From an uncultured Veillonellaceae bacterium (GTDB lineage: Bacteria > Bacillota > Negativicutes > JARBTT01): a stretch of DNA of 64,000 bases. The stretch lies in contig CAWDTA010000002.1 in the NCBI GenBank assembly GCA_963805085.1, positions 1,408,001-1,472,000 of the forward strand. The letters are read 5' to 3'. The position numbers and the translations under genes were made by a program. Below are positions 3,619 to 62,825 of this stretch, piece after piece (the first letter of the stretch is position 1; each line of letters opens with the position of its first letter). Under the pieces are notes generated by a model. That model worked only from the letters and a program-made list of their open reading frames with translations, was not told the DNA's origin and searched no databases.

Positions 3619-3720
3619 AAATAGAATCTAAACAGAATAAAGAACCCTCCTGCTCAAATTTGCATGAATTTAGCAGGAGATTTGAGCTTATATGAGAATA
3701 TATAGTTTTAATATAAAAAA
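3619..3720 (+). repeat. Array element, diverged
   Basis: Core CTCCTGCT...AGCAGGAG 3647-3679. Confidence 0.85.
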
Positions 3721-3954
3721 GGTGCCTATCTAAAATTTAAGATAAGCACCTTTTTCGATAAATTTATATTAAAAGTTAAATTTAATTAAATTTAAAATCC
3801 AACTTAATTGTTATCATCGGAGTTTAATCATCAAGTGAATTTTTTATGAAATATTCTAACCTTCCTCAGAAATAATTCATATGTATTTTATATTTTAAAC
3901 TTTACCAAATGATTTTTTGAAATTCTTTTGAAGTCTGAAAGAAGGAATTATTTT

Positions 3955-4773
3955 ATGGAATTAATCGAAATTCCCCAGAATTCGATAAAACGGTTTTTTT
4001 GCGCTAGTGGATCTAAATTACTGGAGCGTGTATTGGTAATTGCTTTGAGTACATTGTCTCTTTATTTATCTACAGAGTATTGGTGCTTTACTTGGGTTGC
4101 ATTATTGTTGCTTTGTATATATTCGTTGAGAAATTCAGTGAGTATGGCATTTGTGGTGGGGTTTACTTCATACTTACTTGGATCAATAAATCCTCATACT
4201 GTACTTCCTATCGTGATTTATTGGCCGTTAATTACGGTCAATGCAATTGCATTTGCGGGTGTACTTGTCGTCTTTCATCTTATTGCAGACAAATGGAGAG
4301 GGAGGAATACAAGTATTATTTTTGCAAGTGGTTTAACAGCACAAGAATTTGTTTTTGCTCTGTATTCTCCGCATGGAACAGTAAGCAGTATTGCCTACAC
4401 GCAAGCAGCGAATTTACCGATTATCCAGATCGCGTCTATAACTGGTATTGAAGCTGTAAATATTGTTTTCGTTCCTGCACTAGATTTTCATGATGATGCT
4501 TGGAGTCATACACGTATTGCTGTGATGCGAGGTGTTGAAGGTGATTTTGCAGTCGCCCGAGCTGGACAGTGGGGATTGTTAACTTTAAGCGATAGTAGAG
4601 GGCGTATTGTAGAGAAGGTATTCTGTGATAATACGCAAGATGATGCAATGCTTATAGGAGAAGTCTTGCTAGGACAGGGCAGGTCAATCTATAGTAAAAT
4701 AGGTAATAGTTTTGCCTGGATATGCTTAGGAACTTTTGTTATCCTAAGCGCTCTGGCCTTTATAAAGCCTTAA
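3955..4773 (+). pseudogene. Apolipoprotein N-acyltransferase/nitrilase-like membrane protein with internal deletion
   Basis: Lnt-like N-terminus (AYTQ..LPIIQIASITGI) joined directly to the C-terminal CN-hydrolase end (VPALDF...MRGVEG); central catalytic region appears missing. Confidence 0.65.
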
Positions 4774-4834
4774 CAGACTGGGTTTGCCACATGAGGTTAG
4801 TATACAGATCGCATTATTTTAATAAAACTATTAT

Positions 4835-4888
4835 AAAAAGAAAACTCCTGCTAAAATTTTATGTAAATTTGGCAGGAGTTTTGAGCTT
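4835..4888 (+). repeat. Array element, core only
   Basis: AAACTCCTGC...GCAGGAGTTTTGAGC. Confidence 0.85.
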
Positions 4889-4929
4889 CAGGCTCTTTAG
4901 TGAATTCAATTTTCCTCGCCTATATCGCC

Positions 4930-5106
4930 CTAAAGAGGCTTATCGTTATAATCGCGGGGGATGTCAATTGATCCGGAAGCTTTCAATTCTTGGAGTAATG
5001 TGTGCTGTTTACAATCGGGTAGTTTTGGATCTAATAGGTTGTTTTTTGATGGTGATGCTTTAGCCCTAAATCCTGTAGCACTCTGTTTGATATATTTTTT
5101 AGTCAT
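4930..5106 (-). CDS. Small hypothetical protein, 58 aa (MTKKYIKQSATGFRAKASP...)
   Basis: Strong RBS AAAGGAGGTG before ATG at 5106; open to TAG at 4930 (manual translation). Confidence 0.5.
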   Translation of the reverse strand: MTKKYIKQSATGFRAKASPSKNNLLDPKLPDCKQHTLLQELKASGSIDIPRDYNDKPL

Positions 5107-5205
5107 ATAGCACCTCCTTTTTTAGTACTTACATGTAGTATGTCCCAAAGACAGATCAAAATTATTCAAAAATTTAGTCATTAAATTACTGACAGCATTA
5201 TACAT

Positions 5206-5253
5206 TGCTAGATTTTGTATGAATTTGGCAGGAGTTTTGAGTTTATATGAGAC
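5206..5253 (+). repeat. Array element, right arm only
   Basis: TGTATGAATTTGGCAGGAGTTTTGAG. Confidence 0.8.
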
Positions 5254-5396
5254 CTAGCTTATTGATGGTGTAATTAAATATCATCGTATAACCTCAAGTA
5301 TTATTAATACTTGATTGATGCAGATTTTAAGATTGTAAAGTCTTCACCTATAAAAAAATAAACCTTAGTATTTTGCTAAGATTTATTTTTGTATTT

Positions 5397-5621
5397 TCAT
5401 TCTTTGTTATTATTTTTAAACGCAAAACTTAAATCACCATTTTCATTTAGAACAAACATTTCTAACTCTAAAAGTTTCATCAGTGGCAAAACCTGCGTAC
5501 TCAATTCATATATTAACAATTCATAAGCAACTACATAGTGATCTTCACTTAATTTTTGATATTCTTTTAGCTCTGCTTCACGTTGTTTTTTATATTGACT
5601 AAAATCTATTAAATTACCCAT
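5397..5621 (-). CDS. Hypothetical protein, 74 aa
   Basis: RBS GGGGGAGG before ATG; N-terminus MGNLIDFSQYKK. Confidence 0.55.
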   Translation of the reverse strand: MGNLIDFSQYKKQREAELKEYQKLSEDHYVVAYELLIYELSTQVLPLMKLLELEMFVLNENGDLSFAFKNNNKE

Positions 5622-7082: not shown

Positions 7083-7166
7083 CATAGTGGTATTTGAAAA
7101 TTTGGATGCGTCCTTTGGTCAGTTAAAACTTAGATAGACTATTTATAGAACTGGTGAAAATATACT

Positions 7167-7294
7167 AAATAGGATCTAAACATTAAGAAGGAAACTCCTG
7201 TTGAATTCTGTATAATTCAACAGGAGTTTTGAGCTTTTATGGGAATAGGTAAAGTTAATGACAAGATGACGGAAAGGGAACGTTACCCCCGTCT
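7167..7294 (+). repeat. Array element, covarying hairpin
   Basis: CTCCTGTTGAATT...AATTCAACAGGAG; tail GACGGAAAGGGAACGT. Confidence 0.9.
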
Positions 7295-8208: not shown

Positions 8209-8302
8209 GACGGGTGGAGCGTTCCTCTTTATGAGAATAGGTAAGCTTAATATCAAAAAGTTGATGGCAAGGTTCCAGAAAAGAAACATTCCCGCCTGTC
8301 TC
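8209..8302 (+). repeat. Array element, internally deleted (left end fused to right half)
   Basis: GACGGGTGGAGCGTTCC then ATGAGAATA...GATGGCAAGG...CCCGCCTGTC. Confidence 0.8.
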
Positions 8303-9478: not shown

Positions 9479-9540
9479 AGAGAATATATAATTTTAAAAT
9501 TAAAAAGTCGGTGGTAAGGTGACAGAAAATGAGCGTCCAC
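9479..9540 (+). repeat. Array element, right half
   Basis: AGAATAT...AAGGTGACAGAAAATGAGCGTCC. Confidence 0.7.
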
Positions 9541-9608
9541 GCTTGACCAATTCACTTACTTTATTATAGGTCAAAATCTCGTATCTTATAAGGCATATAG
9601 CCATGTAA

Positions 9609-15830: not shown

Positions 15831-16144
15831 ATAGATTGCGAGTGGGTGATACATTAAATTTCCATTAACAAGCTGGTGTGGTTAACGTTTCCACGTCAAA
15901 TTTGTATTAGCTTTCAATCAGTCTGATATAATTTCATTGTTTTGGTTCCAGCAATAGAATGGAGAAAGCGTGTTATCGTGAAATTTGATAAATTAGTTGA
16001 TCTTAAGTAAGTCAAACATAAAACAAGATTCCAGGAGAGATGTTCCTTTATTAGCATGAACGCTAAAAGAAGAAATTTTCACTGTTTATCAATGATTGCC
16101 GATGGATATGTTTTAGAAGGAAAGTTAAGACAGTGTTAAATTTC

Positions 16145-16280
16145 AATAGAATATAAAGAGTAAAAAGTAAACTACTGCTAAATTTGTATTATTTAGCAGT
16201 AGTTTACTTTTTTACGAGAATATGTAGGTTTCGTATCAAAAAAACGAAGGCAGGCAAGAGGGGAAGAGCGTCTCACCTGT
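16145..16280 (+). repeat. Array element, covarying extended hairpin
   Basis: AAAGTAAACTACTGCTAAAT...ATTTAGCAGTAGTTTACTTT. Confidence 0.85.
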
Positions 16281-17812: not shown

Positions 17813-18024
17813 AATATTCCCACCTCTTCAAAATAAATAATTAATTAACTAATTAAAGAAAGAATATCACGTATAGTTTAATTATTCAATAGTTAGAAAA
17901 TATTGTATATATAATTTTGGTGCATACGATGATAGCTAAAATTTATATGCAGAGAGACGGTACTGTGCTCTAGTATGTTTTAGAAGAATAAAAAGATGTC
18001 GTCCCTTTATCGTTACATATAGCA

Positions 18025-18122
18025 GTAAAAAACTATTACGGATTTTTGTATGAATTTGGCGGGCGTTTAAGCTTATATGAGACTATGTAATTTTAACGTT
18101 AGAAGGTAATGAGAAGGTGATA
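18025..18122 (+). repeat. Array element, degenerate
   Basis: TGTATGAATTTGGCGGG...ATGAGACTATGTAA. Confidence 0.7.
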
Positions 18123-18623
18123 GAAAGTCTCTGCTTAAAACCTATAGAAGAGTTAAAGAGATAGAGTTTATTGATACTATAAAAAATATTTATGCTGATA
18201 AAAAAAAATTGTATCTCCCGCAGAGTAAAATGAAAATATAGAAGAAGCTACTGAATTCATGAAATCAATGTAAAATACTTAGATATCGATTGATTACATG
18301 AAAAGGTGCTGCAGCTTTTTATCAAAGAATTTCAATATTATTGGATGATGGTTATGAATTATATGGATCATCAGCAAGTACTTTTAACGGAATGGATGTC
18401 ATTGTGATTAAGGTAGCAGCCAAGATGTTTGCACTCACATCACGCAGGTACGGTCAAGATAACCTTTCGTAATGTGATCCTGAGTATTCTGAGGTATTAA
18501 GATAACAATATCCAAGCATAGTACCTCCTTATTTAGTACTTACATTTAGCATATCCAAAAGATATATCAAAATTCTTCAAAAATTTTTGTTTCGCTCATT
18601 AAAGTGCTATATTTTGATAGCTT

Positions 18624-18718
18624 TCGTATGAATTTGGCAGGATTTTTGAGCTTTTATGAGAATATGTAATTTTAATATCAAAAGTTTGATGGCAAGGTAA
18701 CAGTAAAGAAATGTACCT
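18624..18718 (+). repeat. Array element, right arm and tail
   Basis: GTATGAATTTGGCAGGA...GATGGCAAGG. Confidence 0.85.
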
Positions 18719-19671: not shown

Positions 19672-19819
19672 GAAGTATAAATGCTAGTGATCCCCCACAA
19701 CAAAAACTGATATATAGGGGCGGCAGAAGGGTCTTTTTACAGTGCTTCAAAAATTCGGATGCTTCCTTTTATCTGTTGAAACATTAACCAATTATTTATA
19801 TAAATCAGCTAAATATGAT

Positions 19820-24324: not shown

Positions 24325-24333
24325 AAAATTTTC

Positions 24334-47725: not shown

Positions 47726-47740
47726 TCCCTGTCCCCGTGT

Positions 47741-47844
47741 TTTTATATGAATTTGGCAGGAGCTTTGGGCTTTTATGAGAATAGGTAAATTTAATATCAA
47801 AAAGTTGATGGCAAGGTGACGGAAGAGAAACGTCCCTGATTGTC
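47741..47844 (+). repeat. Array element, right arm and tail, preceded by GGGGACAGGGA...TCCCTGTCCCC hairpin
   Basis: ATGAATTTGGCAGGAGC...AAACGTCCCTGATTGTC. Confidence 0.88.
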
Positions 47845-48246: not shown

Positions 48247-48416
48247 AGAATATAACCACTAAAAAGAAAACTCCTGCTCAATTCTGTATGAATTTGGCAG
48301 GAGTTTTGAGCTTTCATGAGAATATGTAAGTTTAATGTGAAAAGTTGATGGCAAGGTGACAGAAAAGGAACGTCCCCACCTGTCCCCACCTGTCCACTGT
48401 CCCGTCCCCACCTGTC
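48247..48416 (+). repeat. Array element with reiterated GTCCCCACCT end
   Basis: Core 48268-48306. Confidence 0.93.
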
Positions 48417-48488
48417 ATGTCAGAACCATCTTTTTGAGTCTTGTTTTTAATAAATTTAGCGATTATTAAGAAAAAGGAGACAAATGTC

Positions 48489-49118
48489 ATGAAAAATAAG
48501 TATGAGGTAATTGATGAAAGCAAGTGGAAAAGGGCGCTGCACTGTCAAATGTTTAGAAACAGCATAGAACCCTCCTATTGTGTTACCTTCGAATTGGACA
48601 TAACAAATTTCTTGAAGAAAATCAGGACAGCAAATTTATCCTTTACATTTGCGCTTATCTTTGTTGTCTCAAAATGTGCAAACAGTATTGAAGAGTTTCG
48701 ATATCGTTTCCTTGATGGTCAGATTATGCTTTATGATAAGATCGATACAGCTTTTACTTACCTGGATAAGAATACGGAACTATTCAAAGTTGTTAATGTT
48801 GAAATGCAAGACACATTAGAAAGTTATGTTTCTGTAGCGGTTCAAAAAGTTGCAAACCAAAAAGATTATTTTACAGGGCCATTGGGCAATGATGTATTTC
48901 AGTTTTCGCCTATGCCGTGGATATCATATACGCATATTTCACACACAAATTCCGGTAAAAAAGATAATGCCACTCCTTTATTTGATTGGGGAAAATATTT
49001 TGACAGAGATGGGAAAACAATACTTCCCTTTTCCGTTCAGGTACATCATTCTTTTGTGGATGGAGTACATATTGGAAAATTGGCGGATTCTTTGCAAAAT
49101 TATTTGAACAAGTTTTAA
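48489..49118 (+). CDS. cat: Type A chloramphenicol O-acetyltransferase-like protein
   Basis: W.R..H, T.ELDIT, N.IEEFR, S.MPWISYT, P.FDWGKY, LPFSVQVHHSFVDG.H. Confidence 0.8.
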   Translation: MKNKYEVIDESKWKRALHCQMFRNSIEPSYCVTFELDITNFLKKIRTANLSFTFALIFVVSKCANSIEEFRYRFLDGQIMLYDKIDTAFTYLDKNTELFKVVNVEMQDTLESYVSVAVQKVANQKDYFTGPLGNDVFQFSPMPWISYTHISHTNSGKKDNATPLFDWGKYFDRDGKTILPFSVQVHHSFVDGVHIGKLADSLQNYLNKF

Positions 49119-51205: not shown

Positions 51206-51262
51206 AGTTGGTGATTTAGGGTAATTCATACATCTATTTCACAGGCTAACACAAATACCGCT

Positions 51263-51393
51263 AAATATAGTACAAACAATAATTAGGAAACTCTTGCAGG
51301 ATTCTGTATGAATTTGGCAGGAGTTTTAGGCCTTTATGAGAATAGGTAGGTTTAGTATCAAAAATTCGATGACAAAAGAGCGTCCCTGCCTGC
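51263..51393 (+). repeat. Array element
   Basis: Core 51288-51326. Confidence 0.88.
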
Positions 51394-51660: not shown

Positions 51661-51784
51661 CGTTATTATACTCGTGTGGTGGTAAAATATCAAGTATATG
51701 ATCAAAGTGAATTTTAAATGTAGGTAAGAAGACAATAGTGGATAAAAATGATTTTTATCTTATGAGATTGTTCTTAATGATGAT

Positions 51785-52009
51785 AAATAGAATATAAACA
51801 CTGAAAAAGCAACTCCTGCTGAATTTTGTATGAATTTGGCAGGAATTTTGCGCTTTTATGAGAATATGTAAATTTAATAGTTAAAAGTAGATAGCAAGGT
51901 TGAGGAGGGCGAAGTGGCGGAGGGAGTGTCTTAGAAAAAAGCAACAAGATAAAATCACCGTCCACAGTCGTTCGAAAATAGTGGGACATGGAACCTGTCC
52001 CCTTGTCCC
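51785..52009 (+). repeat. Array element, full long tail
   Basis: Core 51810-51848; tail to CCTGTCCCCTTGTCCC. Confidence 0.93.
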
Positions 52010-52138: not shown

Positions 52139-52825
52139 CTCCCTCGAAAAGTTTTAGCGGTTGTTTTTCTTAAAACTGCCTCTATTGACTTTGCTAGGCG
52201 AACTGTTTCCAGTACGTCTTTATGTATTTATTATAACCACATCATCAATAAATATCAATGAAATAAATCTCATTTTTGTATTAAATCTAAAAAAATTATA
52301 AAAGCTCAATCCAAAGATAGAGGATTGAGCTTTTTGTTTTTCACGAAAATTTATGTGTCAGATATGAAATTGTGTTTACTTGGGTTTTCGACTTTTTAAA
52401 ATAAAATTTAATCAGCATTATTAAAATAAAACAAGTTGTTGTAATTACAGCACCAAATTGTATGTTAGATTTGGTGAATCAATTCCTATTAATAACATTT
52501 TGGATAAATTAGAAGACTCGCATAAATCACAGATTGAAAATATGGGAAAAAAAGATAGGCGTTTATCTAATGGACAAGATGACTTAACGGGTGAGTATGT
52601 AGATTTTGTTTCAATAGAAGAAGATAAACAGCGATATGATAAAGAAATTACGGATTTAAGGAAAAATCTAAAAAATAAATTCCAAGAATGTTTAAGTTCA
52701 TCTCAGAAGATATAATTTGTAGTCATTTTTTACTCAGAGGAGCTGGAGGATGGATTGCGAGTGCCTAATTTACTTAGATATAGACCTTTATCAGGAGATT
52801 GGCAGAGGTTAATGTGCTGTAATTA

Positions 52826-52953
52826 TAAAAAGGAAACTCCTGCTGAATTCTGTATGAATTTGGCAGGAGTTTTACGCTTTTATGAGAATATGTAAGTCTA
52901 ATATCAAAAAGTCGATAGCAAGGTGACGGAAAAGGGACGTCATCTATTGTCCC
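52826..52953 (+). repeat. Array element
   Basis: Core 52834-52872. Confidence 0.93.
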
Positions 52954-52986: not shown

Positions 52987-54345
52987 TTAATTCTCTCTTA
53001 CGCCATATGCAACTCGTCTAATATTGATTAAGTTCATAGGTCCTACATTGTCTGAGGTAGCACTGCCGCCTATTGCGCCGCATCCTAAAGTCAATGCTGG
53101 AACAAGATTAGTTGAAGCACCAATACCACCTAATGATCCTGAAGTATTGATCAAAAGTCTGGATACCGGCATCTTTAAGGCAAATTCTCTGATGACGGAG
53201 TTATCATTAGAATGAAGAATTAAAGTATGCCCTTTTCCCTCGTTCATTAGAATTTCTATACAGCGATCACAGGCTTTTTTAAGGTTCTCTTCACAGTAAA
53301 AAGCAAGTATGGGAGCTAATTTTTCTCTGGAATAGCAATTTAGCTTTCCTACTGTTGTTTGCTCAGAAATCAGTACCTTCGCTCCTGCAGGGATTGTTAT
53401 GCCTACTAAGTTGGCTATTGTTTGTACATTTTTTCCGACAATTTGCGGATTTATCATACCATTGCTTTTTAAAATATATAGCCCCAATTGCTCGGATTGT
53501 TCTGGAGTTAAGAAGTAAGCACCCTGTTTTTTGAATTCGGCGATAACGGCTTCTTTTGAGCAGGATTCGACAATAACGGATTGTTCTGAAGCGCAGATTA
53601 CACCATTATCAAAAGTCTTACTTTCTATAATTCTTTGCACAGCGAGTTGAAAATCTGCTGTTTTTTCGATGAAAGCAGGTCCATTGCCTGGACCTACTCC
53701 AATAGCGGGGGTGCCAGAACTATACGCTGCTTTAACCATAGCTTCGCCGCCTGTAGCAAGAATTAATGAAACATCGGGGTGCTTCATTAATTGTGTAGTA
53801 CCTTCCATGGAAAGAACCCTCATACAACCAATGATCCCTTCAGGAGCACCTGCTTTAACTGCAGCGTTCTGCAGTATAATTGCTGCTTCTATTGTGCAGT
53901 TTTTTGCTGATGGATGAGGAGAAAATACAATAGCATTTCCTGTTTTTAATGCTATGAGAGATTTGTAAATAACAGTGGAAGTAGGATTAGTAGAAGGCAC
54001 TAATGCAGTAATTATGCCAACTGGAACAGCTACGTCCATTACCATTTTTTCCTTGTCATCTGTTAAAATACCTACTGTTTTTATATGTTTGATGTGATTA
54101 TATACGACTTCACTGGCAAATTTATTTTTGATTATTTTATCTGACCATTTGCCGAACCCAGTTTCTGTATTGGCAAGCTTTGCAAGGTGATCAGCTTCTC
54201 TACTAGCAGCGATAGACATTGCTTCAATAATTTTATCAATTTGTTCTTGGGTAAAATCTTTATAAACTTCCTGTGCCTTTTTGGCTTTGGCAATTATATC
54301 ACGAGCCTCTTGGATAGATTGTAAATCTGAAGATAATGTTTGCAT
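52987..54345 (-). CDS. Acylating acetaldehyde dehydrogenase (EutE/PduP-like)
   Basis: D.QSIQEAR, PSTNPTST, ATGG.AMVKAAYSSG, TFDNGVICASEQ, TLGCG. Confidence 0.9.
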   Translation of the reverse strand: MQTLSSDLQSIQEARDIIAKAKKAQEVYKDFTQEQIDKIIEAMSIAASREADHLAKLANTETGFGKWSDKIIKNKFASEVVYNHIKHIKTVGILTDDKEKMVMDVAVPVGIITALVPSTNPTSTVIYKSLIALKTGNAIVFSPHPSAKNCTIEAAIILQNAAVKAGAPEGIIGCMRVLSMEGTTQLMKHPDVSLILATGGEAMVKAAYSSGTPAIGVGPGNGPAFIEKTADFQLAVQRIIESKTFDNGVICASEQSVIVESCSKEAVIAEFKKQGAYFLTPEQSEQLGLYILKSNGMINPQIVGKNVQTIANLVGITIPAGAKVLISEQTTVGKLNCYSREKLAPILAFYCEENLKKACDRCIEILMNEGKGHTLILHSNDNSVIREFALKMPVSRLLINTSGSLGGIGASTNLVPALTLGCGAIGGSATSDNVGPMNLINIRRVAYGVREN

Positions 54346-54668
54346 GAGTAAACCCTCCTTGTTTTATTTAAATATCAAATCTCTAAATTGTATAGTGTAG
54401 TATTTTCAAAGAGTTTGTGGTGAATAATTTCCTGTTTTTAGACTAGGAAAAAGCTTGATCAACAAATTATCTTGTACATTATTGAAACATCTGTTAATAT
54501 GGAAAAAAATAGATTTTTTAGTGATAACTCTTCTTGATATGATAGTAACATTTTATTGTAGACAGAACTATTCGGTTTTTTAAAAAACTGTTTCTATTTT
54601 AAAAAAATTTGTATTTTTATGAATATTGAAAATACAATATAGTGGGAAATCTGCAAAGGAGGGATATT

Positions 54669-55508
54669 ATGGATAAGTTTAATCGAAATCTGGAACTAAT
54701 TGATGGATTGGAAACTAATTATTTACGTATTTTGTATTATGATTTTGACAAGCAGTATCAAGGTATTTATAATTCCTATGAAAATAATCGATTATGTACC
54801 ATTATTAATGGTGCTAAAAAAGTAAAAATTAATGATTCCAATTTTTTTACTTATGATGAAAATGAATTTATTGTATTACCGCCTTATTCCAGTATAAACT
54901 TAGAAATAAATATTCCTACGACTGCATTAGTTATTGAAATTTTTAACGGATTAATTGAGGATATTACGGAAAAAGTTAGTTTGGAAACTGAGATAGAGTG
55001 TGTTTGTACCGCAGATAATAGTTTTTGTCATACAAAGAAGACAACTACACTACAAATCATCCTTGAAAAAATCTTTCAGACAGGTATAGGAACTGATAAA
55101 AACAAGGAATTCATTATCGATTTATATGCACAGGAAATGATATATGATTTGCTTAAAAATCAATATGTTCAGGATGTAAAAAGAAATCAATCAAACAATT
55201 TTATGCAATTAGCTATCAATTTAATGAAAAATAATCTTTCTGGTGATAGCAGCATTGCTGATATCGCACAAATTTTAAATATGTCGTCAGCTAGTTTTTC
55301 AATAAAATTTAAACAAATGACAGGTATAACACCTAATAAATATTTGACTAATTTAAAGCTGCTTCATGCCAAAACACAGTTGCAGTTAAACAATAAAAAT
55401 GTTACGGAAATTGCAATGGATTTGGGGTACGAAAATATTTCTCATTTTATTCAATTATTTAAAGAAAAATTTGGAGATACACCCAAACAATATCTTTTGA
55501 AGCAGTAA
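54669..55508 (+). CDS. AraC family regulator
   Basis: FK..TG.TP.KY, VTEIA.DLGYENISHFI..FK.KFG.TP.QY. Confidence 0.9.
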   Translation: MDKFNRNLELIDGLETNYLRILYYDFDKQYQGIYNSYENNRLCTIINGAKKVKINDSNFFTYDENEFIVLPPYSSINLEINIPTTALVIEIFNGLIEDITEKVSLETEIECVCTADNSFCHTKKTTTLQIILEKIFQTGIGTDKNKEFIIDLYAQEMIYDLLKNQYVQDVKRNQSNNFMQLAINLMKNNLSGDSSIADIAQILNMSSASFSIKFKQMTGITPNKYLTNLKLLHAKTQLQLNNKNVTEIAMDLGYENISHFIQLFKEKFGDTPKQYLLKQ

Positions 55509-55558: not shown

Positions 55559-55756
55559 TATTTTTTCGTAATAAAATAATAAATTGTATTATAAGTCTGG
55601 GGTACAGGAGATGAATGGAAGTATTGTGAAATTTTAATAGATATTACTACTTTCCAATTGTTTCTTAACTTGTCCATTTAATAACAGAAGAGACCATGTT
55701 AATTTTGATTTGTCCCTTATTGAATTATTGATAAAATAGACTACGTCAGTGATGCT

Positions 55757-55981
55757 AAATAGAATATAAACACTAAAAAGGAAACTCTTGCTGAATTCTG
55801 TATAAATTTGGCAGGAGTTTTGAGCTTTCATGAGAATATGTAATTTTAATATCAAAAAGTTGATGGCAAGGTTGAGGAGGGCGAAGTAGCGGAGGTACTG
55901 TCTTAGGAAAAAGTAACAAGACGAAATCATCGTCCCCAGTCGTTCGAAAATGGTGGGACAGGGAACCTGTCCCCTTGTCCC
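55757..55981 (+). repeat. Array element, full long tail
   Basis: Core 55782-55820. Confidence 0.93.
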
Positions 55982-56533: not shown

Positions 56534-57406
56534 TTGTTTATGAGAAATACGTGTAAAAGTGGAATGTTCCTTGGTTATGATAGTGGTGTAAGTACAACTG
56601 GTGTGAGTACTTATGATCCGGATATTGTATCGTTTGACTATTGCAACTGGAATGGTTCGGGAGCCAGTGCAATAAGCTATAACTACAATAGCACAGTGAA
56701 AAATTTAAATAAAACGATTTCTGTATCTTGCCATATGCCCAATCCGAACGGCGGAAATGCAAAAGTTGCAATGTCAGCCTCAGATTTTTCTACACTCGCC
56801 AGTACCCAGATAAAATCGATCACCTCATCCAGTTCTACAATGCTGCAAACATACAAGGCAGAAGTAGACAAAATAGCAGCTGGACTCAGCAATCTTGGAA
56901 CTACTGTGTATTTTAGACCGTTTCATGAAATGAATGGCAGTTGGTTTTGGTGGGGAAAGCAGTTAACAAGTGATTTCATTAATCTTTGGAAAAAATTATA
57001 TGATTATATTATAAATTATAAAGGTCTATCCAATGTAAAATTTGTTTATGCACCTAATAAGGGGAGTTATGCGGCTGACTATTATCCTGGGAGCAGCTAT
57101 GTGACATGGATAGGAATTGATGCTTATAGTGATGATCCTGTCAATGATTCGGATATCAAAACTGCCTACAATGCACTGGTTGGTAAAGGCAAGTCCATTG
57201 GTTTTAGTGAAATCGGGCCTACAGTAGGAGGGGCATATGTAGATAGCAGTAACAATCAGATTAAGAAATTTGACTATACTCTATGGAATAATGCGATAAA
57301 TTATACCTATACCAGTGCCAGTTTCTTCATAACCTGGGATGGCGCGTATGGGCCATATAACAATACAAATGGCAGTGTACTCTTCGGAGAACAGTCCTCA
57401 TGGTAA
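56534..57406 (+). CDS. Glycoside hydrolase family 26 (beta-mannanase-like)
   Basis: FRPFHEMNGSWFWWG, YYPG, IGIDAY, FSEIG. Confidence 0.88.
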   Translation: MFMRNTCKSGMFLGYDSGVSTTGVSTYDPDIVSFDYCNWNGSGASAISYNYNSTVKNLNKTISVSCHMPNPNGGNAKVAMSASDFSTLASTQIKSITSSSSTMLQTYKAEVDKIAAGLSNLGTTVYFRPFHEMNGSWFWWGKQLTSDFINLWKKLYDYIINYKGLSNVKFVYAPNKGSYAADYYPGSSYVTWIGIDAYSDDPVNDSDIKTAYNALVGKGKSIGFSEIGPTVGGAYVDSSNNQIKKFDYTLWNNAINYTYTSASFFITWDGAYGPYNNTNGSVLFGEQSSW

Positions 57407-57547
57407 TTTTGTAAAGCGTCCGAATAGGGTGCTTTTCACTTGCAAGAATTTTGCCGATAGTTATAGTGTATGGATGTTTGCTCATATGCTTTGCTAACAT
57501 TTTATGCACTGCACACCGACTTCTTGTCTGCAACGATAATAATCATT

Positions 57548-57769
57548 AAATAGAACACAAATAGTAAAAGGAAACTCCTACTGAATTCTGTATGAATTTT
57601 GCAGGAGTTTTGAGCTTTTATGAGAATATGTAAATTTAATATCAAAAATTGATGGCAGGTTGAGGCGGATGAAGTGGCGGAGGTAGTGTCTTAGAGGAAA
57701 GCAATAAGACGAAATCACCGTCCCCAGTTGTTCGAAAATAGTGGGACGGGGAACCTGTCCCCTTGTCCC
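57548..57769 (+). repeat. Array element, full long tail
   Basis: Core 57572-57610. Confidence 0.93.
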
Positions 57770-57778: not shown

Positions 57779-58489
57779 TTAAACTTGATTATTGACTACA
57801 ATTATATGGTTCCACCAAGTGCTCATTGCATTCATTAATTTTTGAGATGAAAAATATCTGTCTTTTCCTTTTGGTTGACCATCTTGATAGGTGGCATTCC
57901 AATTATTTGGATCATAAACTTCAAAGTAGGTGTTACCATCTACTACTCTGTAGCCTTTTACCACAATAAAATGACCTCCTTTATAATCGTAAAATCTTTC
58001 TATTCTTTGTTCAGAGTTATTGTTATATGGTATATAAGTTGTATCGATACATAAAATAAGTATATTTCCTTGCTGTAATTGAGATTTTAAAAGACTTTCT
58101 GATGGATTATCCCAAACTTTACCTTTGGTACCATTTAACTCAAGATAATTTAGAACATCATTCGTATACCACCATCCGCCATTTTCAGGATAAACAGCTC
58201 TTGCATCTTCAACAGTTTTAGAAAAGTCACTGTTTAGCCACTTTAATGCCATTATAGTACTAGACGGACCGCAGTTGCTATTTGAGTATTCTCCTGTGTT
58301 TCCCTGATCTATATACCAATCATAAGATCTATTATTACTGATATATTCAGATTGCACTACTCCTAGACCCCAGCTAGAATCAACTGTTGTAATACTACTT
58401 TGTGCAGCTTGTGCAATTACAGCACCGCTTAATAAAGTTACCAAAATTAAAAATGATGTAATAATTTTATTAAATTTAGTTTTAATCAT
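57779..58489 (-). CDS. Secreted C39-like cysteine peptidase
   Basis: Signal peptide; Q...NCGPSS..MAL, GHFIVVKGY, VYDP. Confidence 0.75.
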   Translation of the reverse strand: MIKTKFNKIITSFLILVTLLSGAVIAQAAQSSITTVDSSWGLGVVQSEYISNNRSYDWYIDQGNTGEYSNSNCGPSSTIMALKWLNSDFSKTVEDARAVYPENGGWWYTNDVLNYLELNGTKGKVWDNPSESLLKSQLQQGNILILCIDTTYIPYNNNSEQRIERFYDYKGGHFIVVKGYRVVDGNTYFEVYDPNNWNATYQDGQPKGKDRYFSSQKLMNAMSTWWNHIIVVNNQV

Positions 58490-58999
58490 ATTATTTCCCT
58501 CCATTAATAACATGTTTTGTATTTATTTCACAGTAAAAATAGATATATTTACGACATGAAACAAAACTTTATTTCATCCAGACACGCCCCCTTTCTATAC
58601 TTAGCTATTGGATTTGACACAGGCGATAATTTACCAGAAATCCACATTAGCACTTAAGTTATCCTTCATAGTGCTTGCAATGTTAGCTAATATTTTTTTG
58701 AATCATTTGTAGAAAATATTCCTTTATATCAGCCTCCTTGTTTATATACATTCTTTAAATGTTGTTTTTTAAACCATAATCGACAAAAAAACACTGCTTA
58801 AGAAATAAATAAAATTTAGGGAATTATATCCGTAAAGAAAAACAGCAGACAGTACCTGTATAAAGGTATTGTCTGCTGTTTGGATAAAGATTTAAGAAGC
58901 TTTTTCGGATGTAGAGGGGCGATCTCCATTTCAATAAAATGGGGTGACTTTTCACGTCCGCTACCATCCCCTGTCGTTAAGAATAGTGCCTATAGTGCT

Positions 59000-59068
59000 A
59001 ATTAGAATATAACCAATACAGACGAAACTCCTGCTGAATTTTGTATGAATTTGGCAGGGGGGTGAGCT
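59000..59068 (+). repeat. Array element, right-truncated
   Basis: Core 59025-59063. Confidence 0.85.
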
Positions 59069-59134: not shown

Positions 59135-60214
59135 ATGAAAACTAAGTTTTTTATTCTGTTGTTTTTTTCAGTATTTATTTTTGGTTCTAACTTTTCACAA
59201 GCTTATGCGGAAGATCAATTTTTATTTTTAGGACAGTCAGCAAGTGCAGAGGCTTATCTGGATACTGCAACACTTTCTGTTACAAAAGATGATAGAAAGT
59301 GCATTTATTATGACGCATGGATAAAGAGTAAGAATAAACAGGAAGTTCAGCAATTAGATGTTTTTAATAATCAGCAAGAATATGTAGATTATGAATTCTT
59401 TCATATGATATTTGCTATAACTCAAGATAAGAAAATGATTCAGATTCGGAGTGTTAGTCCTTATGGTAAAAGTGGTGCAAAGCTTTTGGGGGATAGGGCG
59501 AATAATCCAATGTTTACAGACATCATCAAAGGTTCAATGGCTGATGTGCTGGCTGATGAAATAACAAGATATGTATCACAAAATTGGGTGGGGCCAATCC
59601 CCGATTTGGATGAAAAATATCTGCCCTTGGATGAGACGAAATTTTATAATTTATTTACATCTAAAGGATATGCGCTAAATAAAATAGAGGAGTCACAGGG
59701 ACCTAAGCCAGCAAATAATGATTCTTATATCTCTACTACAACGCCGTATAGCTTTTTAGATAAAGCTCTTGATAAAGAAGTCTGGTTTAGTGCATCTGGC
59801 GATGATAAGCAACATTTAAATATGGCACATGTATCTTTTGGCACTGAAGGGCAAAATTATAAACAATCTGAATTGTTTACTAATAATTTATCTTTAGAAG
59901 AAAAAATAAATTTGTTTTACACGGCACTACAAGCATTGTTTCCAGAATGGTCAAAAGATGAATCTGAAAAATGGGTAAATGATTCAATTGCCAGAATGAA
60001 TCAAAGCGATAAAGTCATGTTTATATATTTGCATAAGGGTAAAAATTATATAATGATTTCGCGGCAGCCGACAAACGATAATATAGCAGTATTATATGTG
60101 CTCAAAATTTCTCCAATTGAGCCAATCGAGGTTAATCCTATCCAGTCATATTATGAGCGTAACAATGCTATTTCTATTTATGAGGAATGGAAACCATCAA
60201 AAAAGAATGATTAA
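59135..60214 (+). CDS. Secreted hypothetical protein
   Basis: Signal peptide (MKTKFFILL...AYA); long open ORF with RBS. Confidence 0.7.
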   Translation: MKTKFFILLFFSVFIFGSNFSQAYAEDQFLFLGQSASAEAYLDTATLSVTKDDRKCIYYDAWIKSKNKQEVQQLDVFNNQQEYVDYEFFHMIFAITQDKKMIQIRSVSPYGKSGAKLLGDRANNPMFTDIIKGSMADVLADEITRYVSQNWVGPIPDLDEKYLPLDETKFYNLFTSKGYALNKIEESQGPKPANNDSYISTTTPYSFLDKALDKEVWFSASGDDKQHLNMAHVSFGTEGQNYKQSELFTNNLSLEEKINLFYTALQALFPEWSKDESEKWVNDSIARMNQSDKVMFIYLHKGKNYIMISRQPTNDNIAVLYVLKISPIEPIEVNPIQSYYERNNAISIYEEWKPSKKND

Positions 60215-60223
60215 GTACTGTTG

Positions 60224-60409: not shown

Positions 60410-60991
60410 ATGAAAAAGATTTTGTTATTATTGGCCAATGGTTTTGAAGCCTATGAAGCAAGTGTTTTTACTGATGTATTGGACTGGAATATGGAAGAGG
60501 GGGACGGATCAACTCAAGTGGTGACTTGTAGTTTACACAAGCAGATTACTTGTACTGGACGTTTAACTGTAATTCCTGAATTACTAATATCACAAGTTGA
60601 TGTAGCTAAGTTTGACGCATTGGCGATTCCAGGCGGGTATGAATCTAAAGGGTTTTATAAGGATGCATATAGTGACGAGTTCTTGACTCTTATTCAAAAG
60701 TTTAATTCAGTAGAAAAAATCATTTCTGCAATTTGCGTCGGAGCTTTACCAGTGGGAAAAAGCGGAGCATTATTTGGTCGTCAAGGAACGACATATCATT
60801 TGAATAATGGATATCGTCAACAGCAATTAGCTTCCTTTGGGGTTAGTGTTGTTAACCAACCGATAGTAATTGATAGTAACATTATAACGTCTTCGTCACC
60901 AGCAACAGCAATGGACGTTGCCTTTAAGCTATTGGAGATGCTTACATCATTGGAAAACTGTCGTCATGTTAAATATTTAATGGGTTTTTAA
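60410..60991 (+). CDS. DJ-1/PfpI family protein
   Basis: LLANGFE..E, DALAIPGG, AICVG, ITS..P..A; RBS GGAGG before ATG 60410. Confidence 0.9.
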   Translation: MKKILLLLANGFEAYEASVFTDVLDWNMEEGDGSTQVVTCSLHKQITCTGRLTVIPELLISQVDVAKFDALAIPGGYESKGFYKDAYSDEFLTLIQKFNSVEKIISAICVGALPVGKSGALFGRQGTTYHLNNGYRQQQLASFGVSVVNQPIVIDSNIITSSSPATAMDVAFKLLEMLTSLENCRHVKYLMGF

Positions 60992-61007
60992 TAAACGCTA
61001 TACTCGT

Positions 61008-61102
61008 TTAAAATCAAAAAGTGATGGCAAGGTTGAGGAGGGCGAAGTGGTGGAGGTAGTGTCTTAGAAAAAAGCAACAAGACGAAATCAATGTCCCTAG
61101 TC
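61008..61102 (+). repeat. Array element, long tail only
   Basis: GATGGCAAGGTTGAGGAGGGCGAAGTGG... Confidence 0.85.
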
Positions 61103-61103
61103 T

Positions 61104-61829
61104 ATGGAGGGTGAAAACTTGTGGGAAGAAGCTTTACGTTTATTAGACAAAGACAAAATCCGAAATTGCAATATCATTAATTTTATAGACCAATATCCGA
61201 TAGAACGGATTGAAATAATGGGACAGTCGGTATTGGTGAGAGGTATAAGTGATGAAATCTGGAATTATATTAGCAGCGAAAATGTAAATGAGTTTGAAAA
61301 GTTGATTGAAAATGAGCAAGCTGCAGGTACACATTTTGCTGCTATTGAAGACTGGATGCTTCCTTATTTAACACTAAGTAGGACGGTAGTTTGGCAGTTA
61401 ACAAGTATAAAATTAGTGTTTACACATGATGTATCATTGCTGCCTGCTAATAAACATAATGTATCTGAATTAAAACCAGAGGATGCACAGTATATCTACA
61501 AACATTATAATTATCAAAAGTATACATCGGTAGAATATATTGCTAATCGTATTAAAAATGGTAATGCGTTAGGTATCTATGAAGACAGTAAACTTATAGC
61601 TTGGATTGCGACTCATGATGATGGTGCAATGGGTTTATTACATGTACTGCCGGAATATAGAAAAAAAGGATATGGATATGAACTGACTGTTGCCTTAATA
61701 ATGGGCTTGTATGAACAAGGTAAGCTTCCATTTGTTCATATTGAAGAGGAAAATGAAAAGTCGATGAATCTAGTATTAAAAGTCGGTTTTGTAAAAGATA
61801 GGCGTATTCACTGGTTAAAAGTGAAGTGA
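61104..61829 (+). CDS. GNAT acetyltransferase (FR47-like)
   Basis: LHVLPEYRKKGYG, N.KS..L..KVGF. Confidence 0.85.
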   Translation: MEGENLWEEALRLLDKDKIRNCNIINFIDQYPIERIEIMGQSVLVRGISDEIWNYISSENVNEFEKLIENEQAAGTHFAAIEDWMLPYLTLSRTVVWQLTSIKLVFTHDVSLLPANKHNVSELKPEDAQYIYKHYNYQKYTSVEYIANRIKNGNALGIYEDSKLIAWIATHDDGAMGLLHVLPEYRKKGYGYELTVALIMGLYEQGKLPFVHIEEENEKSMNLVLKVGFVKDRRIHWLKVK

Positions 61830-61925
61830 ATTTTGCCAAGCCTTCAAATTCTTTTAACGTCATTTTTTGCCAAATTTTTATGAATTTTTAATAAATCTTT
61901 TACAAAGATTTTAGATAACATTGTT

Positions 61926-62064
61926 AAATAGAAATATAAACACTAAAAAGGAAACTCCTGCTGAATTCTGTATGAATTTGGCAGGAGTTTTGAGCTTTTA
62001 TGAGAATATGTAAGTTTAATAGTTAAAAAGCCGATGGCAAGGTGACGGGAAAAAAAACGTCCCC
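61926..62064 (+). repeat. Array element, near consensus
   Basis: Core 61952-61990. Confidence 0.95.
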
Positions 62065-62066
62065 GA

Positions 62067-62636
62067 ATGTTTCAGATTTATTTGTGGCAATTTGCCTTTA
62101 GAGGAGTGTTTATTATTTTCAAGATAACCAAAAGTGCTATACCTAATTCATTGACTCTTGCCAATTTAGGGTGTGGTATTATGTCTATAATGATGTTATT
62201 CCAGTTGAACTATATATGGTCTGCCATTTTTATATTATTAGCATGCCTTGCAGATCGATATGATGGATTTGTTGCTAGATGGCTAAATGTGTCAGGTGAA
62301 TTAGGAAAAGAGCTTGATTCTCTTGCGGATGTAGTTTCTTTTGGGGTTGCGCCGTCTATACTTGCTTTTAATCTCTATGGATTTTCAGAATTGGGGATTT
62401 GGGGGTATTTATTGTTATTGTTATTCCCGCTGGCTGGTGCGTATAGGTTAGCCAGATTCAATGTTACTGAATTTGACGGAGAATTTTATGGTATTCCTAT
62501 AACTTTCGCTGGTATGTTTATGGCATTATATTGCCTAGCTACGGTAAAATACTTATTGCCATTAGGAGTTACAGCAATATTAATGATTGCTCTATCTTAC
62601 CTTATGGTTTGCAAGCATAAATTTAAAAAGTTTTAA
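62067..62636 (+). CDS. pssA: CDP-diacylglycerol-serine O-phosphatidyltransferase (start uncertain)
   Basis: IPNSLTLANL, D.YDG.VAR, GKELDSLADVVSFGVAP, RLARFN. Confidence 0.88.
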   Translation: MFQIYLWQFAFRGVFIIFKITKSAIPNSLTLANLGCGIMSIMMLFQLNYIWSAIFILLACLADRYDGFVARWLNVSGELGKELDSLADVVSFGVAPSILAFNLYGFSELGIWGYLLLLLFPLAGAYRLARFNVTEFDGEFYGIPITFAGMFMALYCLATVKYLLPLGVTAILMIALSYLMVCKHKFKKF

Positions 62637-62702
62637 AAATGTAAAAGGTAGTTGTGGAATCAACAAGTAAATTTTTGTCTGTTTAAATTTTGACAAATCG
62701 TT

Positions 62703-62825
62703 AAATAGAATATAAACACTAAAAAGGAAACTCCTGCTGAATTTTGTATTAATTTGGCAGGAGTTTTGAGCTTTTATGAGAATATGTAAGTTTAATGTGA
62801 AAAGTTAATGGCAAGGTGACAGAAA
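62703..62825 (+). repeat. Array element cut by IS110
   Basis: Core 62728-62766; tail stops at GTGACAGAAA. Confidence 0.93.

Follow-up and report, generated by a model that had tools for sequence, protein, structure and literature searches.

A co-oriented array of composite hairpin elements bounding small gene blocks in an uncultured Veillonellaceae bacterium

The 64,000-nucleotide stretch of DNA analyzed here (C2:1408001-1472000, hereafter the window) belongs to an uncultured Veillonellaceae bacterium whose genome sequence comprises 4,211,623 bases in five contigs (C1-C5) and has a G + C content of 37%. The window contains a composite repeat of 140-250 nt, in the following referred to as the junction element, and small blocks of genes that are separated by its copies. 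A repeat search revealed three families of direct repeats across the window (22 copies of 136 nt, 25 copies of 54 nt, and 24 copies of 42 nt), all of them in + orientation, whereas inverted pairs were confined to the palindromic hairpin of the element itself and a separate pair around the region of the cat gene. An earlier inspection based on the letters of the window and its open reading frames (ORFs), here called the original prediction, had described about 35-40 such elements, always on the + strand, and had proposed a dedicated gene-capture array. For a genome-wide census, an nhmmer profile was built from the 140-nt core of 22 aligned copies and applied with a cut-off of E <= 1e-3. It retrieved 68 matches, two of which were opposite-strand shadows of the palindrome, leaving 66 loci. 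A stretch of 96.3 kb (C2:1382324-1478608), which represents 2.3% of the genome, contains 46 of these 66 loci, corresponding to an approximately 30-fold enrichment over the 1.5 copies expected under a uniform distribution. The window harbors 32 of the 46 array copies (3618-62826) and at least three additional fragments missed by the profile (27793-27865, 29176-29207, and 61007-61102), all on the + strand, in good agreement with the predicted number and orientation. The concentration of the copies also bears out the predicted picture of a clustered and polar locus with constant repeats and variable cargo, as opposed to a genome-wide family of miniature inverted-repeat transposable elements (MITEs).

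The array extends approximately 26 kb beyond the left and 6.6 kb beyond the right edge of the window, and eight further copies are located at C2:1514030-1610758, past a gap of 35 kb. This gap contains two giant ORFs of 2155 and 4953 amino acids (C2:1481084-1502419), presumed to be a non-ribosomal peptide or polyketide cluster. Four copies lie on the - strand of C4 and eight weak copies on the + strand of C5, but the profile found none on C1, on C3, or on C2 left of 1.38 Mb, which includes the left replichore. The highest scores were obtained at the right (1446-1477 kb), and copies become shorter and weaker toward the left. According to the GC skew, the origin of replication is situated near C2:0.82 Mb, with + as the leading strand in the window and on C5, and - as the leading strand on C4. 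All 66 copies are thus oriented in the direction of replication and lie on the leading strand, and since their strands match the replichores, they share one orientation relative to replication. The original prediction had itself named an orientation that merely follows the replichores as a warning sign; its expectation of clustering was confirmed, whereas the common orientation of the copies turned out to be of exactly this replichore-bound kind.

The junction element consists of four parts, which follow each other in 5' to 3' direction on the leading strand: an AT-rich box (TAAATAGAATATAAAC), a hairpin, a segment designated module B, and a tail. The hairpin (AAACTCCTGCTGAATTC-TGTAT-GAATTTGGCAGGAGTTT) comprises 17-18 pairs including two G.T wobbles that can pair on the + strand only, is followed by T-runs on both strands, and was called a terminator by a simple scan. 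Module B (..TATGAGAATATGTAAGTTTAATATCAAAAAGTTGATGGCAAGGT) contributes, in every full copy scanned, to the promoter-like sequence TTGGCA-18-GAGAAT, whose putative -35 hexamer (TTGGCA) falls within the invariant 3' arm of the hairpin. The tail is a small terminal hairpin that resembles repetitive extragenic palindromes (REPs) and ends with ..CCnnCTGTC. It occurs as a long form of approximately 100 nt, which has its own 7-bp stem and the end ..AACCGTCACCTTGTCT, and as a short form (GACGGAAAAGGAACGTCCCCnnCTGTC). The short tail is read as a probable internal deletion of the long one, whose end matches the tails found in Sporomusa; the converse idea of a REP cassette inserted into the long tail was dropped after comparison with a copy on C4. 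Two or three tandem CCnCCTGTC units often follow the tail. Arrays of two to four short tandem units (CCnCCTGTC or CCTAGTGTC) were observed at window positions 60333-60395 and 48347-48420, at C2:1952030-1952090, and also beside genes resembling REP-associated tyrosine transposases (RAYTs), and look as if left behind by repeated rounds of cleavage and rejoining, or by slippage. About one-third of the copies carry an extra ~100 nt at the left, and a few of these begin with an inverted copy of the tail: by eye, such an inverted tail is located ~95 nt upstream of the box in about 3-6 of 31 elements, and an nhmmer search for inverted tails on the opposite strand returned none at E < 10.

Several observations bear on the structure and relationships of the element. 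When folded as RNA, the best copy had a z-score of -4.0. An alignment of 77 hairpins from this genome and others showed compensatory double changes in five of 12 pairs; one-sided changes led mostly to G.U on the + strand, and hardly any variation occurred in the 3' arm (TTTGGCAGGAG), a pattern consistent with folding of the + strand and with an additional, sequence-specific role of the 3' arm. The invariant ..GCAGGAGTT.. and the motif GAGAAT or CAGAAT 12 nt downstream (e.g., window 60274-60303 and the Sporomusa copies) presumably resemble the -35 and -10 regions of sigma-H type promoters of Bacillus; if this likeness is true, cassettes would be switched on upon entry into stationary phase or sporulation. 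Rfam 15 yielded no match in the window and none on any element at the gathering score, and a scan with relaxed thresholds produced two chance-level matches only, just one on an element hairpin (E 0.88). The element ends, determined by inspection of alignments and with no formal attC model, are ..TAAATAGAATATAAAC and ..CGTCCCCnnCTGTC and are thus unlike the attC cores RYYYAAC and GTTRRRY. A common short in-frame ending (..SDFIxMNx*) is present in approximately 12 of 35 copies; as the open frames span only 9-54 codons, it is not claimed as a gene. Neighboring elements are no more alike than distant ones (0.793 vs. 0.789), which argues against simple tandem duplication and leaves an origin by tandem duplication or local gene conversion unsupported. 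The relationship among the copies is instead star-like, with most of them being closest to a few consensus-like copies.

The 45 intervals between the 46 array elements range in length from 25 to 10,867 nt and, according to a crude longest-ORF map, contain one ORF in 21 cases, two in nine, none in seven, and three to ten in eight, so that 30 of the 45 hold one or two ORFs. The cargo ORFs are distributed over both strands (51 on + and 30 on -); within 120 nt of the 3' end of an element, 11 + ORFs start and 14 - ORFs end. Each functional block is accompanied by one element, and none was found inside a block. All gene boundaries that the original prediction had placed next to an element recur in the ORF map (+ genes starting at 19985, 31329, 39942, 48441/48489, 60410, and 61104; - genes ending at 21066, 34915, 52987, and 57779). 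Pfam also upheld its cargo labels by identifying a chloramphenicol acetyltransferase (CAT), a PRK/CoaA-like kinase, a phenolic acid decarboxylase (PAD) with PadR, GH26, peptidases of the C1, C39-like, and CAAX types, Amidase_3, a CDP-alcohol phosphatidyltransferase, and many regulators (LysR, AraC, HxlR, and MarR). Further cargo enzymes belong to the DJ-1/PfpI, GNAT, methyltransferase, YkuD, aldehyde dehydrogenase, short-chain dehydrogenase, and FMN reductase families, and transport is represented by ThrE and MFS proteins (Table 1).

Table 1. Junction elements and cargo in the window (positions are those of the 64,000-nt stretch; blocks with genes on both strands are marked by a dot).
Feature	Position	Strand	Basis
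Element copy; box, hairpin, module B, divergent tail	3618..3725	+	nhmmer, profile 2-109
Partial element, hairpin only	4833..4888	+	nhmmer, profile 19-73
Partial element from right hairpin half onward	5205..5252	+	nhmmer, profile 34-81; repeat search
Junction element	7166..7287	+	nhmmer, profile 2-138
3'-only element (module B and tail)	8227..8294	+	nhmmer, profile 72-139
3'-only element	9480..9542	+	nhmmer, profile 78-140
Junction element	16143..16274	+	nhmmer
Degenerate element, 5' hairpin arm lost	18023..18126	+	nhmmer
Junction element	18594..18717	+	nhmmer
Junction element; AAA ATPase gene begins 31 nt downstream	19819..19954	+	nhmmer, Pfam
AAA_15/AAA_21 ATPase	19985..20728	+	Pfam
Junction element	20978..21107	+	nhmmer
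Block: MFS transporter (-) and LysR regulator (+), 96% in congener too	21902..24324	.	Pfam, G001 comparison
Junction element; other cargo after it in congener	24332..24469	+	nhmmer, G001 comparison
Block: AraC (-) and short-chain dehydrogenase (+), absent at this congener site	24556..26422	.	Pfam, G001 comparison
Fragment, left part and box; hairpin deleted relative to congener	27793..27865	+	repeat search, G001 comparison
Fragment, terminal hairpin (tail) only; full element in congener	29176..29207	+	G001 comparison
Alpha/beta hydrolase, other array position in congener	30167..30979	-	Pfam, G001 comparison
Junction element; related metagenome contig adds cassette here	31166..31305	+	nhmmer, L080 comparison
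CAAX/Rce1-like protease	31329..32210	+	Pfam
Junction element	32302..32440	+	nhmmer
Block: PadR (-) and phenolic acid decarboxylase (+)	33267..34538	.	Pfam
Junction element, tail of other REP type (GTGGGACA..CCTGTCCCC)	34680..34814	+	alignment, nhmmer
ThrE-family exporter	34915..35559	-	Pfam
3'-only element	35978..36046	+	nhmmer, profile 70-138
Papain-family peptidase C1	36943..37686	+	Pfam
Junction element	38053..38190	+	nhmmer, 131 bits
Junction element; PRK/CoaA-like gene begins 36 nt downstream	39771..39906	+	nhmmer, Pfam
PRK/uridine-kinase family (CoaA-like)	39942..40889	+	Pfam
Junction element	41201..41340	+	nhmmer
Junction element	43710..43845	+	nhmmer
Junction element, long tail; 98-99% identical copies at two C4 sites	46496..46710	+	nhmmer, genome comparison
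Class-I glutamine amidotransferase, 5' part duplicated on C4	46958..47725	+	Pfam
Element, 5' hairpin arm replaced by other REP-like sequence	47702..47839	+	repeat search, alignment, nhmmer
Junction element, tandem CCCCACCTGTC repeats at tail; cat gene next	48247..48378	+	alignment, nhmmer, Pfam
Chloramphenicol acetyltransferase family	48441..49118	+	Pfam
Junction element	51262..51384	+	nhmmer
Junction element, long-tail form	51784..51969	+	repeat search, nhmmer
Junction element	52812..52943	+	nhmmer
Block: aldehyde dehydrogenase-like (-) and AraC (+)	52987..55508	.	Pfam
Junction element, long-tail form	55756..55941	+	repeat search, nhmmer
GH26	56534..57406	+	Pfam
Junction element, long-tail form	57547..57729	+	repeat search, nhmmer
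Peptidase_C39-like	57779..58513	-	Pfam
5'-only element (box and hairpin)	58999..59060	+	nhmmer, profile 2-63
359-aa protein without Pfam family	59135..60214	+	Pfam
Best-scoring element, 139 bits	60222..60365	+	nhmmer, terminator/promoter scan, fold
Parts of best-scoring element: box; hairpin; TTGGCA-18-GAGAAT; terminal hairpin and CCTGTC repeats	60222-60237; 60247-60285; 60274-60303; 60333-60395	+	
DJ-1/PfpI; flanking element parts joined without it on related metagenome contigs	60410..60991	+	Pfam
Fragment, 3' part of module B and long tail; with 60305-60335 forms 21-nt direct repeat around DJ-1 cassette	61007..61102	+	repeat search
GNAT/FR47 acetyltransferase	61104..61829	+	Pfam
Junction element	61926..62065	+	nhmmer, 131 bits; terminator scan
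CDP-alcohol phosphatidyltransferase (PssA-like)	62067..62636	+	Pfam
Junction element, terminal hairpin loop split by IS110-family insertion	62702..62826	+	nhmmer, Pfam
IS110-family insertion sequence, separate from repeat, running to window 64412	62818..64000	-	Pfam Transposase_20

The marker-based completeness of the genome is only 83% despite its five contigs, and several genes appear to be split into overlapping frames (e.g., window 26529-27109), which together suggest indel errors of the long-read type; short ORFs and frameshifts therefore need to be regarded with caution. The aforementioned inverted repeats near cat, which have a length of up to 134 nt (84-86% complementary; window 47904-48148 and 51417-52221) and are unrelated to the junction element, enclose the cat-family gene, a LytTR regulator, and two junction elements, and could be an old inversion or a composite element. 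The IS110-family insertion sequence (IS) at the right end of the window is located exactly in the loop of the terminal hairpin of an element (GACAGAAA^AGGAACG), and its frame appears split; a second, 92% identical copy resides in a similar site (GACAAAAA^AG) at C1:313547-315145. Such an insertion into a hairpin loop recalls IS1111-attC and REP-targeting IS110 elements.

The closest available genomes are those of one congener (G001), followed by other families of the class Negativicutes. An exact pattern representing the 3' half of the hairpin occurred at 35 loci in 185,579 species genomes, nearly all named Negativicutes, with five Sporomusa species, Propionispora, Pelosinus, Lucifera, and metagenome-assembled genomes (MAGs) as carriers. 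A class-wide scan with the exact pattern was positive for 44 of 301 genomes, whereas a reversed control pattern gave no hit. Positive genomes were concentrated in a few families, with 18 of 20, 9 of 15, and 4 of 4 members carrying the pattern; the three largest families searched had 0 of 66, 1 of 62, and 0 of 45. The genome under study possesses by far the most pattern matches (34), followed by two genomes with 18 and 10. On complete Sporomusa chromosomes the copies form co-oriented clusters (S. rhizae, 10 copies in 34 kb; S. silvacetica, nine in 63 kb; S. malonica, seven in 29 kb), and the few copies on the other replichore are inverted. G004, a member of another family, contains approximately 10 copies of the element type of the genome under study (G000) with identities of 84-94%, spread over 85 kb. 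The type of REP that follows module B varies from genome to genome. Searches of plasmid and phage collections did not detect the element, and neither the sequences flanking the array (L014-L016) nor three stretches from Sporomusa clusters (L052, L053, L058) revealed a tRNA or tmRNA gene. Rfam searches of L014-L016 and four Sporomusa stretches retrieved only T-box leaders and a c-di-AMP riboswitch. The latter is situated on the - strand just left of the array (L014:1834-1972, equivalent to C2:1373834-1373972; 84.8 bits). The family of hairpin plus module is old and specific to a part of the Negativicutes.

In many loci of these relatives the hairpin directly follows a coding end (..RIVYDREDDGLRLEVLYK*) that belongs to a large serine recombinase (LSR). 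S. silvacetica encodes an intact protein of 500 amino acids with Resolvase, Recombinase, and Zn-ribbon domains that ends 20 nt before a hairpin. Its best NCBIfam scores, 113 bits for XisF (cut-off 375) and 62 bits for CcrC (cut-off 900), remain below the cut-offs and thus indicate a generic LSR and not a Ccr protein. Upstream of it lie an unassigned 171-amino-acid ORF, DUF960, DUF3795, AraC, LysE, and racemase genes; the DUF960 gene, belonging to a family known from staphylococcal SCC elements, is located two genes upstream (L055:5549-8321), with the 171-amino-acid ORF (6081-6596) in between. DUF960 was not found in the genome under study. At least six C-terminal LSR remnants exist in S. silvacetica; their ends all lie near residue 500, with another hairpin immediately downstream of each, and remnants were also detected in S. 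ovata, S. malonica, S. aerivorans, G040, and several MAGs. Among all 60 hairpins retrieved outside loci of the G000 type, 13 have a remnant that ends 12-54 nt upstream. An LSR stop codon at this distance from the hairpin occurs in at least seven genomes and in two LSR subfamilies. In G004, a divergent LSR remnant (residues ~283-499; 35% and 28% identity) lies exactly between two G000-type elements. The remnants vary in length and have unrelated 5' breaks, as would be expected from the decay of once complete genes; a recurrent breakpoint was not borne out, one remnant being cut by unrelated sequence and another one by an IS. RAYT-like and DDE transposase genes are also located in the S. silvacetica cluster. 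A candidate origin of the left ~100 nt of the element as a decayed recombinase 3' end did not find support: nhmmer with the 3' end of the G004 LSR gave a chance match only (E 6.3), and a profile of the left part matched only an ordinary G004 element and not those adjacent to the LSR.

Comparison with relatives revealed differences at the level of whole blocks. On contig C26 of the congener G001 (280 contigs, 84% complete), the MFS-LysR block, the element, and the HxlR, FMN-reductase, hydrolase, and LysR blocks are 95-97% identical to those of the genome under study, and a block of small ORFs down to 87%. The AraC and short-chain dehydrogenase block is missing there, the hydrolase block occupies another position, and full elements are present where the genome under study keeps only a box or only a tail. 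The same contig runs into DNA that is located 600 kb away in the genome under study. In total, G001 has about 6.3 kb in common with window positions 20-40 kb, and for 40-60 kb it offers only paralogue-level matches (77-78%) and nothing orthologous. Eighteen metagenome loci with G000-type elements share blocks with 85-97% identity, and whole blocks are absent or added. A contig of 24.7 kb is colinear with 1386-1427 kb and lacks about 3.7, 10, and 12.5 kb of cassettes. Contig L080 continues from the left part, box, hairpin, and module B of the element that in the genome under study lies between the hydrolase and the CAAX protease into an extra block of 1.55 kb, which contains a 411-amino-acid ORF and has a different type of REP at its end; next come a second hairpin and module B, which lead without interruption into the CAAX side. 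On soil-metagenome contigs, parts of the element are joined and the DJ-1 block, which here is flanked by a 21-nt direct repeat (ATCAAAAAGnGATGGCAAGGT), is missing; joints with sides inside element copies are ambiguous, and only joints that have a long unique side were used. A reversed block order on contig L074 may be an assembly artefact at repeats and is not relied on. Within the genome, two C4 copies (329710-329541 and 323098-322438), which flank 6.4 kb, are 98-99% identical to the element at C2:1454496, an identity that shows recent movement. The right C4 copy also contains the initial ~200 nt of the amidotransferase gene and is interrupted by a multicopy IS (99.8% identical to C2:1510482-1512081); the other one, of 170 nt, reaches from the hairpin loop exactly to the tail end. 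The original prediction had regarded an identical cargo order in related strains as an argument against gene capture; content and order were found to differ, with breakpoints in or at the elements. These breakpoints occur at several positions, namely ahead of the hairpin, within the hairpin loop, at GGCAAGGT, and where the tail ends, so that most weight is given to recombination between repeats and not to one fixed crossover site. In this respect the idea of a dedicated capture system was not supported, as scattered junctions fit inter-repeat recombination better.

Taken together, we tentatively favor the interpretation that the locus is a sedentary cassette array of self-insulated units. In this view, the array would have begun with small serine-recombinase islands accreting in tandem, and its content would at present be reshuffled as its elements recombine with one another. 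One junction per block, block-wise differences between relatives, and an architecture that recurs across families fit a cassette array better than an accumulated repeat. Each unit would consist of a small functional block and one copy of the composite junction element. The hairpin with T-runs on both sides is a predicted bidirectional terminator and module B a predicted rightward promoter, and each cassette would thus be insulated from its neighbors and could be transcribed rightwards on its own. The position of the hairpin as immediate 3' flank of LSR genes and remnants in Sporomusa may be the signature of a tandem accretion of LSR-borne islands. In the lineage under study, the recombinase genes would have been lost, and a uniform non-autonomous junction would now bound every block. 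Cassettes could be gained, lost, and permuted via recombination between elements that are 80-95% identical; this recombination would probably be homologous and include the uptake of array DNA from relatives.

A number of points weigh against this interpretation. Short-read metagenome contigs and the fragmented G001 genome can be chimeric or broken at repeats, and the ORF counts given above derive from a crude map. In the far-left part of the array, housekeeping-like genes (fumarase, SelO) lie between copies, and the ThrE gene has a homolog in G004 (83% identity on the nucleotide level) in an ordinary context without elements, which suggests that some elements may have entered beside resident genes. 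The same identity and context rule out that the ThrE block results from a recent transfer between families. With regard to the postulated origin, S. rhizae has at least 10 hairpins and no LSR remnant, none of 16 hairpins in G001 and G004 had a remnant when the Sporomusa LSR was used as query, no LSR was present in any of the 18 related metagenome loci, and the left ~100 nt of the G000-type element showed no significant similarity to LSR 3' ends. The LSR may thus have come as a guest with the hairpin as its target, instead of having built the array. Active capture driven by a serine recombinase or by an HUH enzyme is a further candidate mechanism.

The first alternative, which we consider unlikely, assumes that the elements are non-autonomous single-strand transposons of the IS200/IS605-RAYT type, with the large hairpin as left end and the ..CTGTC hairpin as right end. 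They would be mobilized in trans by RAYT-like Y1 HUH enzymes, sometimes with passengers between the ends, and new copies beside existing ends would produce a head-to-tail array. Enzymes of this kind exist in the genome: PF01797 (Y1_Tnp) has 24 matches that are oriented according to the replichores (- left and + right of the origin), among them five IS200-type copies identical to one another and some 17 RAYT-like frames ~250 amino acids long. The RAYT-like frames form at least five subfamilies, and every subfamily has an inverted REP of its own at its flanks. Inverted copies of exactly the short tail of the element (GACAGAAGGGACGTTCC.. and ..GGAACGTCCCCTAGTGTC), together with tandem ..TAGTGTC units, flank three 249-amino-acid Y1 genes (C2:1948687, 1951335, and 2044231), a likeness that covers the terminal hairpin only; the large hairpin and module B are lacking from these RAYT units. 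If an HUH enzyme acted on the leading strand in its folded state, this would account for the strict polarity, a property that single-strand HUH elements are known for, and also the common terminal hairpin, the star-like relationship of the copies, and the C4 copy that spans loop to tail. The inverted tail upstream of some boxes, the passenger-bearing L080 unit, which terminates with a different REP type adjacent to the next hairpin, and the RAYT-like genes inside the S. silvacetica cluster point in the same direction. However, the original prediction had called for a search for recombinase or HUH genes, and Pfam profiles applied to the whole genome revealed no tyrosine recombinase, serine recombinase, or HUH gene inside the 96-kb array; a single RAYT-like gene lies at 1595 kb, in the extended zone outside of it. 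Furthermore, inverted left repeats are confined to the minority of elements given above, REP families are normally dispersed and do not have 70% of their copies in 2.3% of a genome, and the different REP types after module B in other genomes imply that REPs may simply insert there.

An active analog of integrons, with an LSR that works in trans or is encoded in an unassembled part of the genome, appears quite unlikely. According to this scenario the hairpin (~39 bp with an asymmetric center) or the adjoining module would be the att site, from which circles excise and re-insert at any junction. The recurrent distance of LSR stop codons to the hairpin is consistent with it, as are the size and partial dyad symmetry of the hairpin, which are also typical of LSR attachment sites, and several copies start in the loop and keep only the right hairpin half (window 5205 and 47727; C4:329710), similar to attL hybrids. 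The incompleteness of the genome leaves room for an unassembled LSR, and the closest known system, the ssrA islands of Dehalococcoides, works by an LSR (PMC3146451). On the other hand, PF00239, PF07508, and PF13408 each find only two LSR genes in the genome (C2:198875-200431 and C5:701446-703158), both far from the array, without a hairpin after them, and with 27% identity or no match to the Sporomusa enzyme. The LSR-free metagenome loci and the scattered cassette junctions also speak against site-specific capture by an LSR, and the compensatory changes, like those that preserve G.U pairs, are indicative of a folded single strand rather than of two protein half-sites.

It is improbable that an ordinary MITE, REP, or terminator repeat has simply piled up in a dispensable, fast-evolving region where genes were never captured and differences reflect the usual accessory flux. 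The replichore-bound orientation, the housekeeping-like genes between left-hand copies, the ThrE gene that is flanked by elements here but not in G004, and the IS, RAYT, and DDE transposases in the same Sporomusa regions would be compatible with this view, but it is contradicted by the strong enrichment in one stretch with one element per block and none within blocks, by relatives that differ in entire element-bounded blocks, including an added block with a duplicated junction, and by the same architecture across families. A classical integron (IntI plus attC) or a CRISPR array, which share only the layout of constant repeats and variable spacers, can be dismissed in line with the original prediction, as none of the three PF00589 matches (C5:313363, C2:942668, and C4:2593) lies within 400 kb of the array on C2, Rfam found nothing at the gathering score, and repeats of 140-250 nt with spacers of 0.2-10.9 kb differ from CRISPR repeats of roughly 23-50 nt with spacers of similar size.

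Many small accessory blocks, which include genes for detoxification, acetylation, methylation, cell-wall enzymes, and regulators as well as a cat-family gene, are held between copies of one portable junction sequence, which seems to provide them with termination, a promoter, and a stretch of homology for exchange. A more far-reaching proposal, which at present must be called doubtful, is that part of the Negativicutes has assembled an integron-analogous capture platform from unrelated parts. Its junction would be recombination site, bidirectional terminator, and outward promoter at once, would be serviced by an LSR (as in Sporomusa) or a RAYT-like HUH enzyme, and would render the cassettes self-insulated, with the array described here (46-54 units) being the largest seen so far. 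If an enzyme proves to act on the junction, this would be a new recombination system with a compact, conserved, and structured site and a natural substrate library; if no enzyme acts, it would be a clear natural case of repeats that serve as portable homology arms and make a chromosome region modular. In both cases the element can serve as a convenient marker to locate such regions in Sporomusa, Pelosinus, Propionispora, and their relatives, genera that are relevant to acetogenesis and bioremediation.

The original prediction had not recognized a described system. Full-text searches, with subscription journals outside their scope, indeed retrieved no description of the element or of cassette arrays in Negativicutes, but close analogs exist in the ssrA islands of Dehalococcoides, the staphylococcal cassette chromosome (SCC), and integron arrays. 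A more distant resemblance is to REPs, bacterial interspersed mosaic elements, REPIN-RAYT systems, and IS200/IS605 derivatives, with which the element shares the kind of terminal hairpin found around RAYT-like genes, the extragenic and replication-tied location, and the mosaic build; unlike them, its copies are concentrated in one locus, and the box, the 17-bp hairpin, and module B are absent from RAYT units. Chromosomal integrons and clusters of attC sites lacking integrases (CALINs) are long co-oriented arrays with similar structured repeats and accessory cargo, and integrase-less orphan arrays exist. The accessory cargo (acetyltransferases, DJ-1, methyltransferases, regulators) and the targeting of the repeat by an IS110-family element are similar here. 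IntI is lacking, however, inspection of the alignments reveals no attC signature, the repeat adjoins an LSR gene (in relatives) and not a tyrosine integrase, one-third of the cargo is on the opposite strand, and each unit appears to have its own terminator and promoter in place of one Pc promoter. To our knowledge integrons are absent from Firmicutes, and the array would thus be an independent route to an integron-like architecture. SCC composite islands consist of serine-recombinase-borne cassettes and recombinase-less pseudo-SCC units stacked between repeated attachment sequences. A DUF960 gene near the LSR of S. silvacetica is a common trait, but this LSR is not a Ccr, an rlmH anchor is missing, and the units here are far more numerous and smaller. 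Compared to serine-recombinase accretion arrays in general (ssrA genomic islands and SCC), no LSR is present at the array in the genome under study (an LSR and remnants exist in S. silvacetica, a remnant in G004) and no single fixed crossover is apparent; every block is, as in these systems, bounded by co-oriented direct repeats, and the L080 cassette carries a duplicated hairpin and module B. The ssrA islands of Dehalococcoides arise by tandem accretion through DsiB, a serine recombinase of the CcrB family (PMC3146451). They differ from the array in that their repeat is the 20-bp end of the tmRNA gene, anchored at ssrA, in place of a 140-250-nt composite with a hairpin and a promoter-like module, and in that the array comprises 46-54 units of mostly one or two genes, with no tRNA or tmRNA anchor found and no recombinase located at it. 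An LSR gene lies beside the repeat in some of the Dehalococcoides islands, and those free of an integration module have been proposed to be mobilizable in cis (PMC3146451). Many tandem islands within ~100 kb, the same direct repeat as boundary, and strain-specific content are features that the Dehalococcoides islands and the array described here have in common (PMC3146451).

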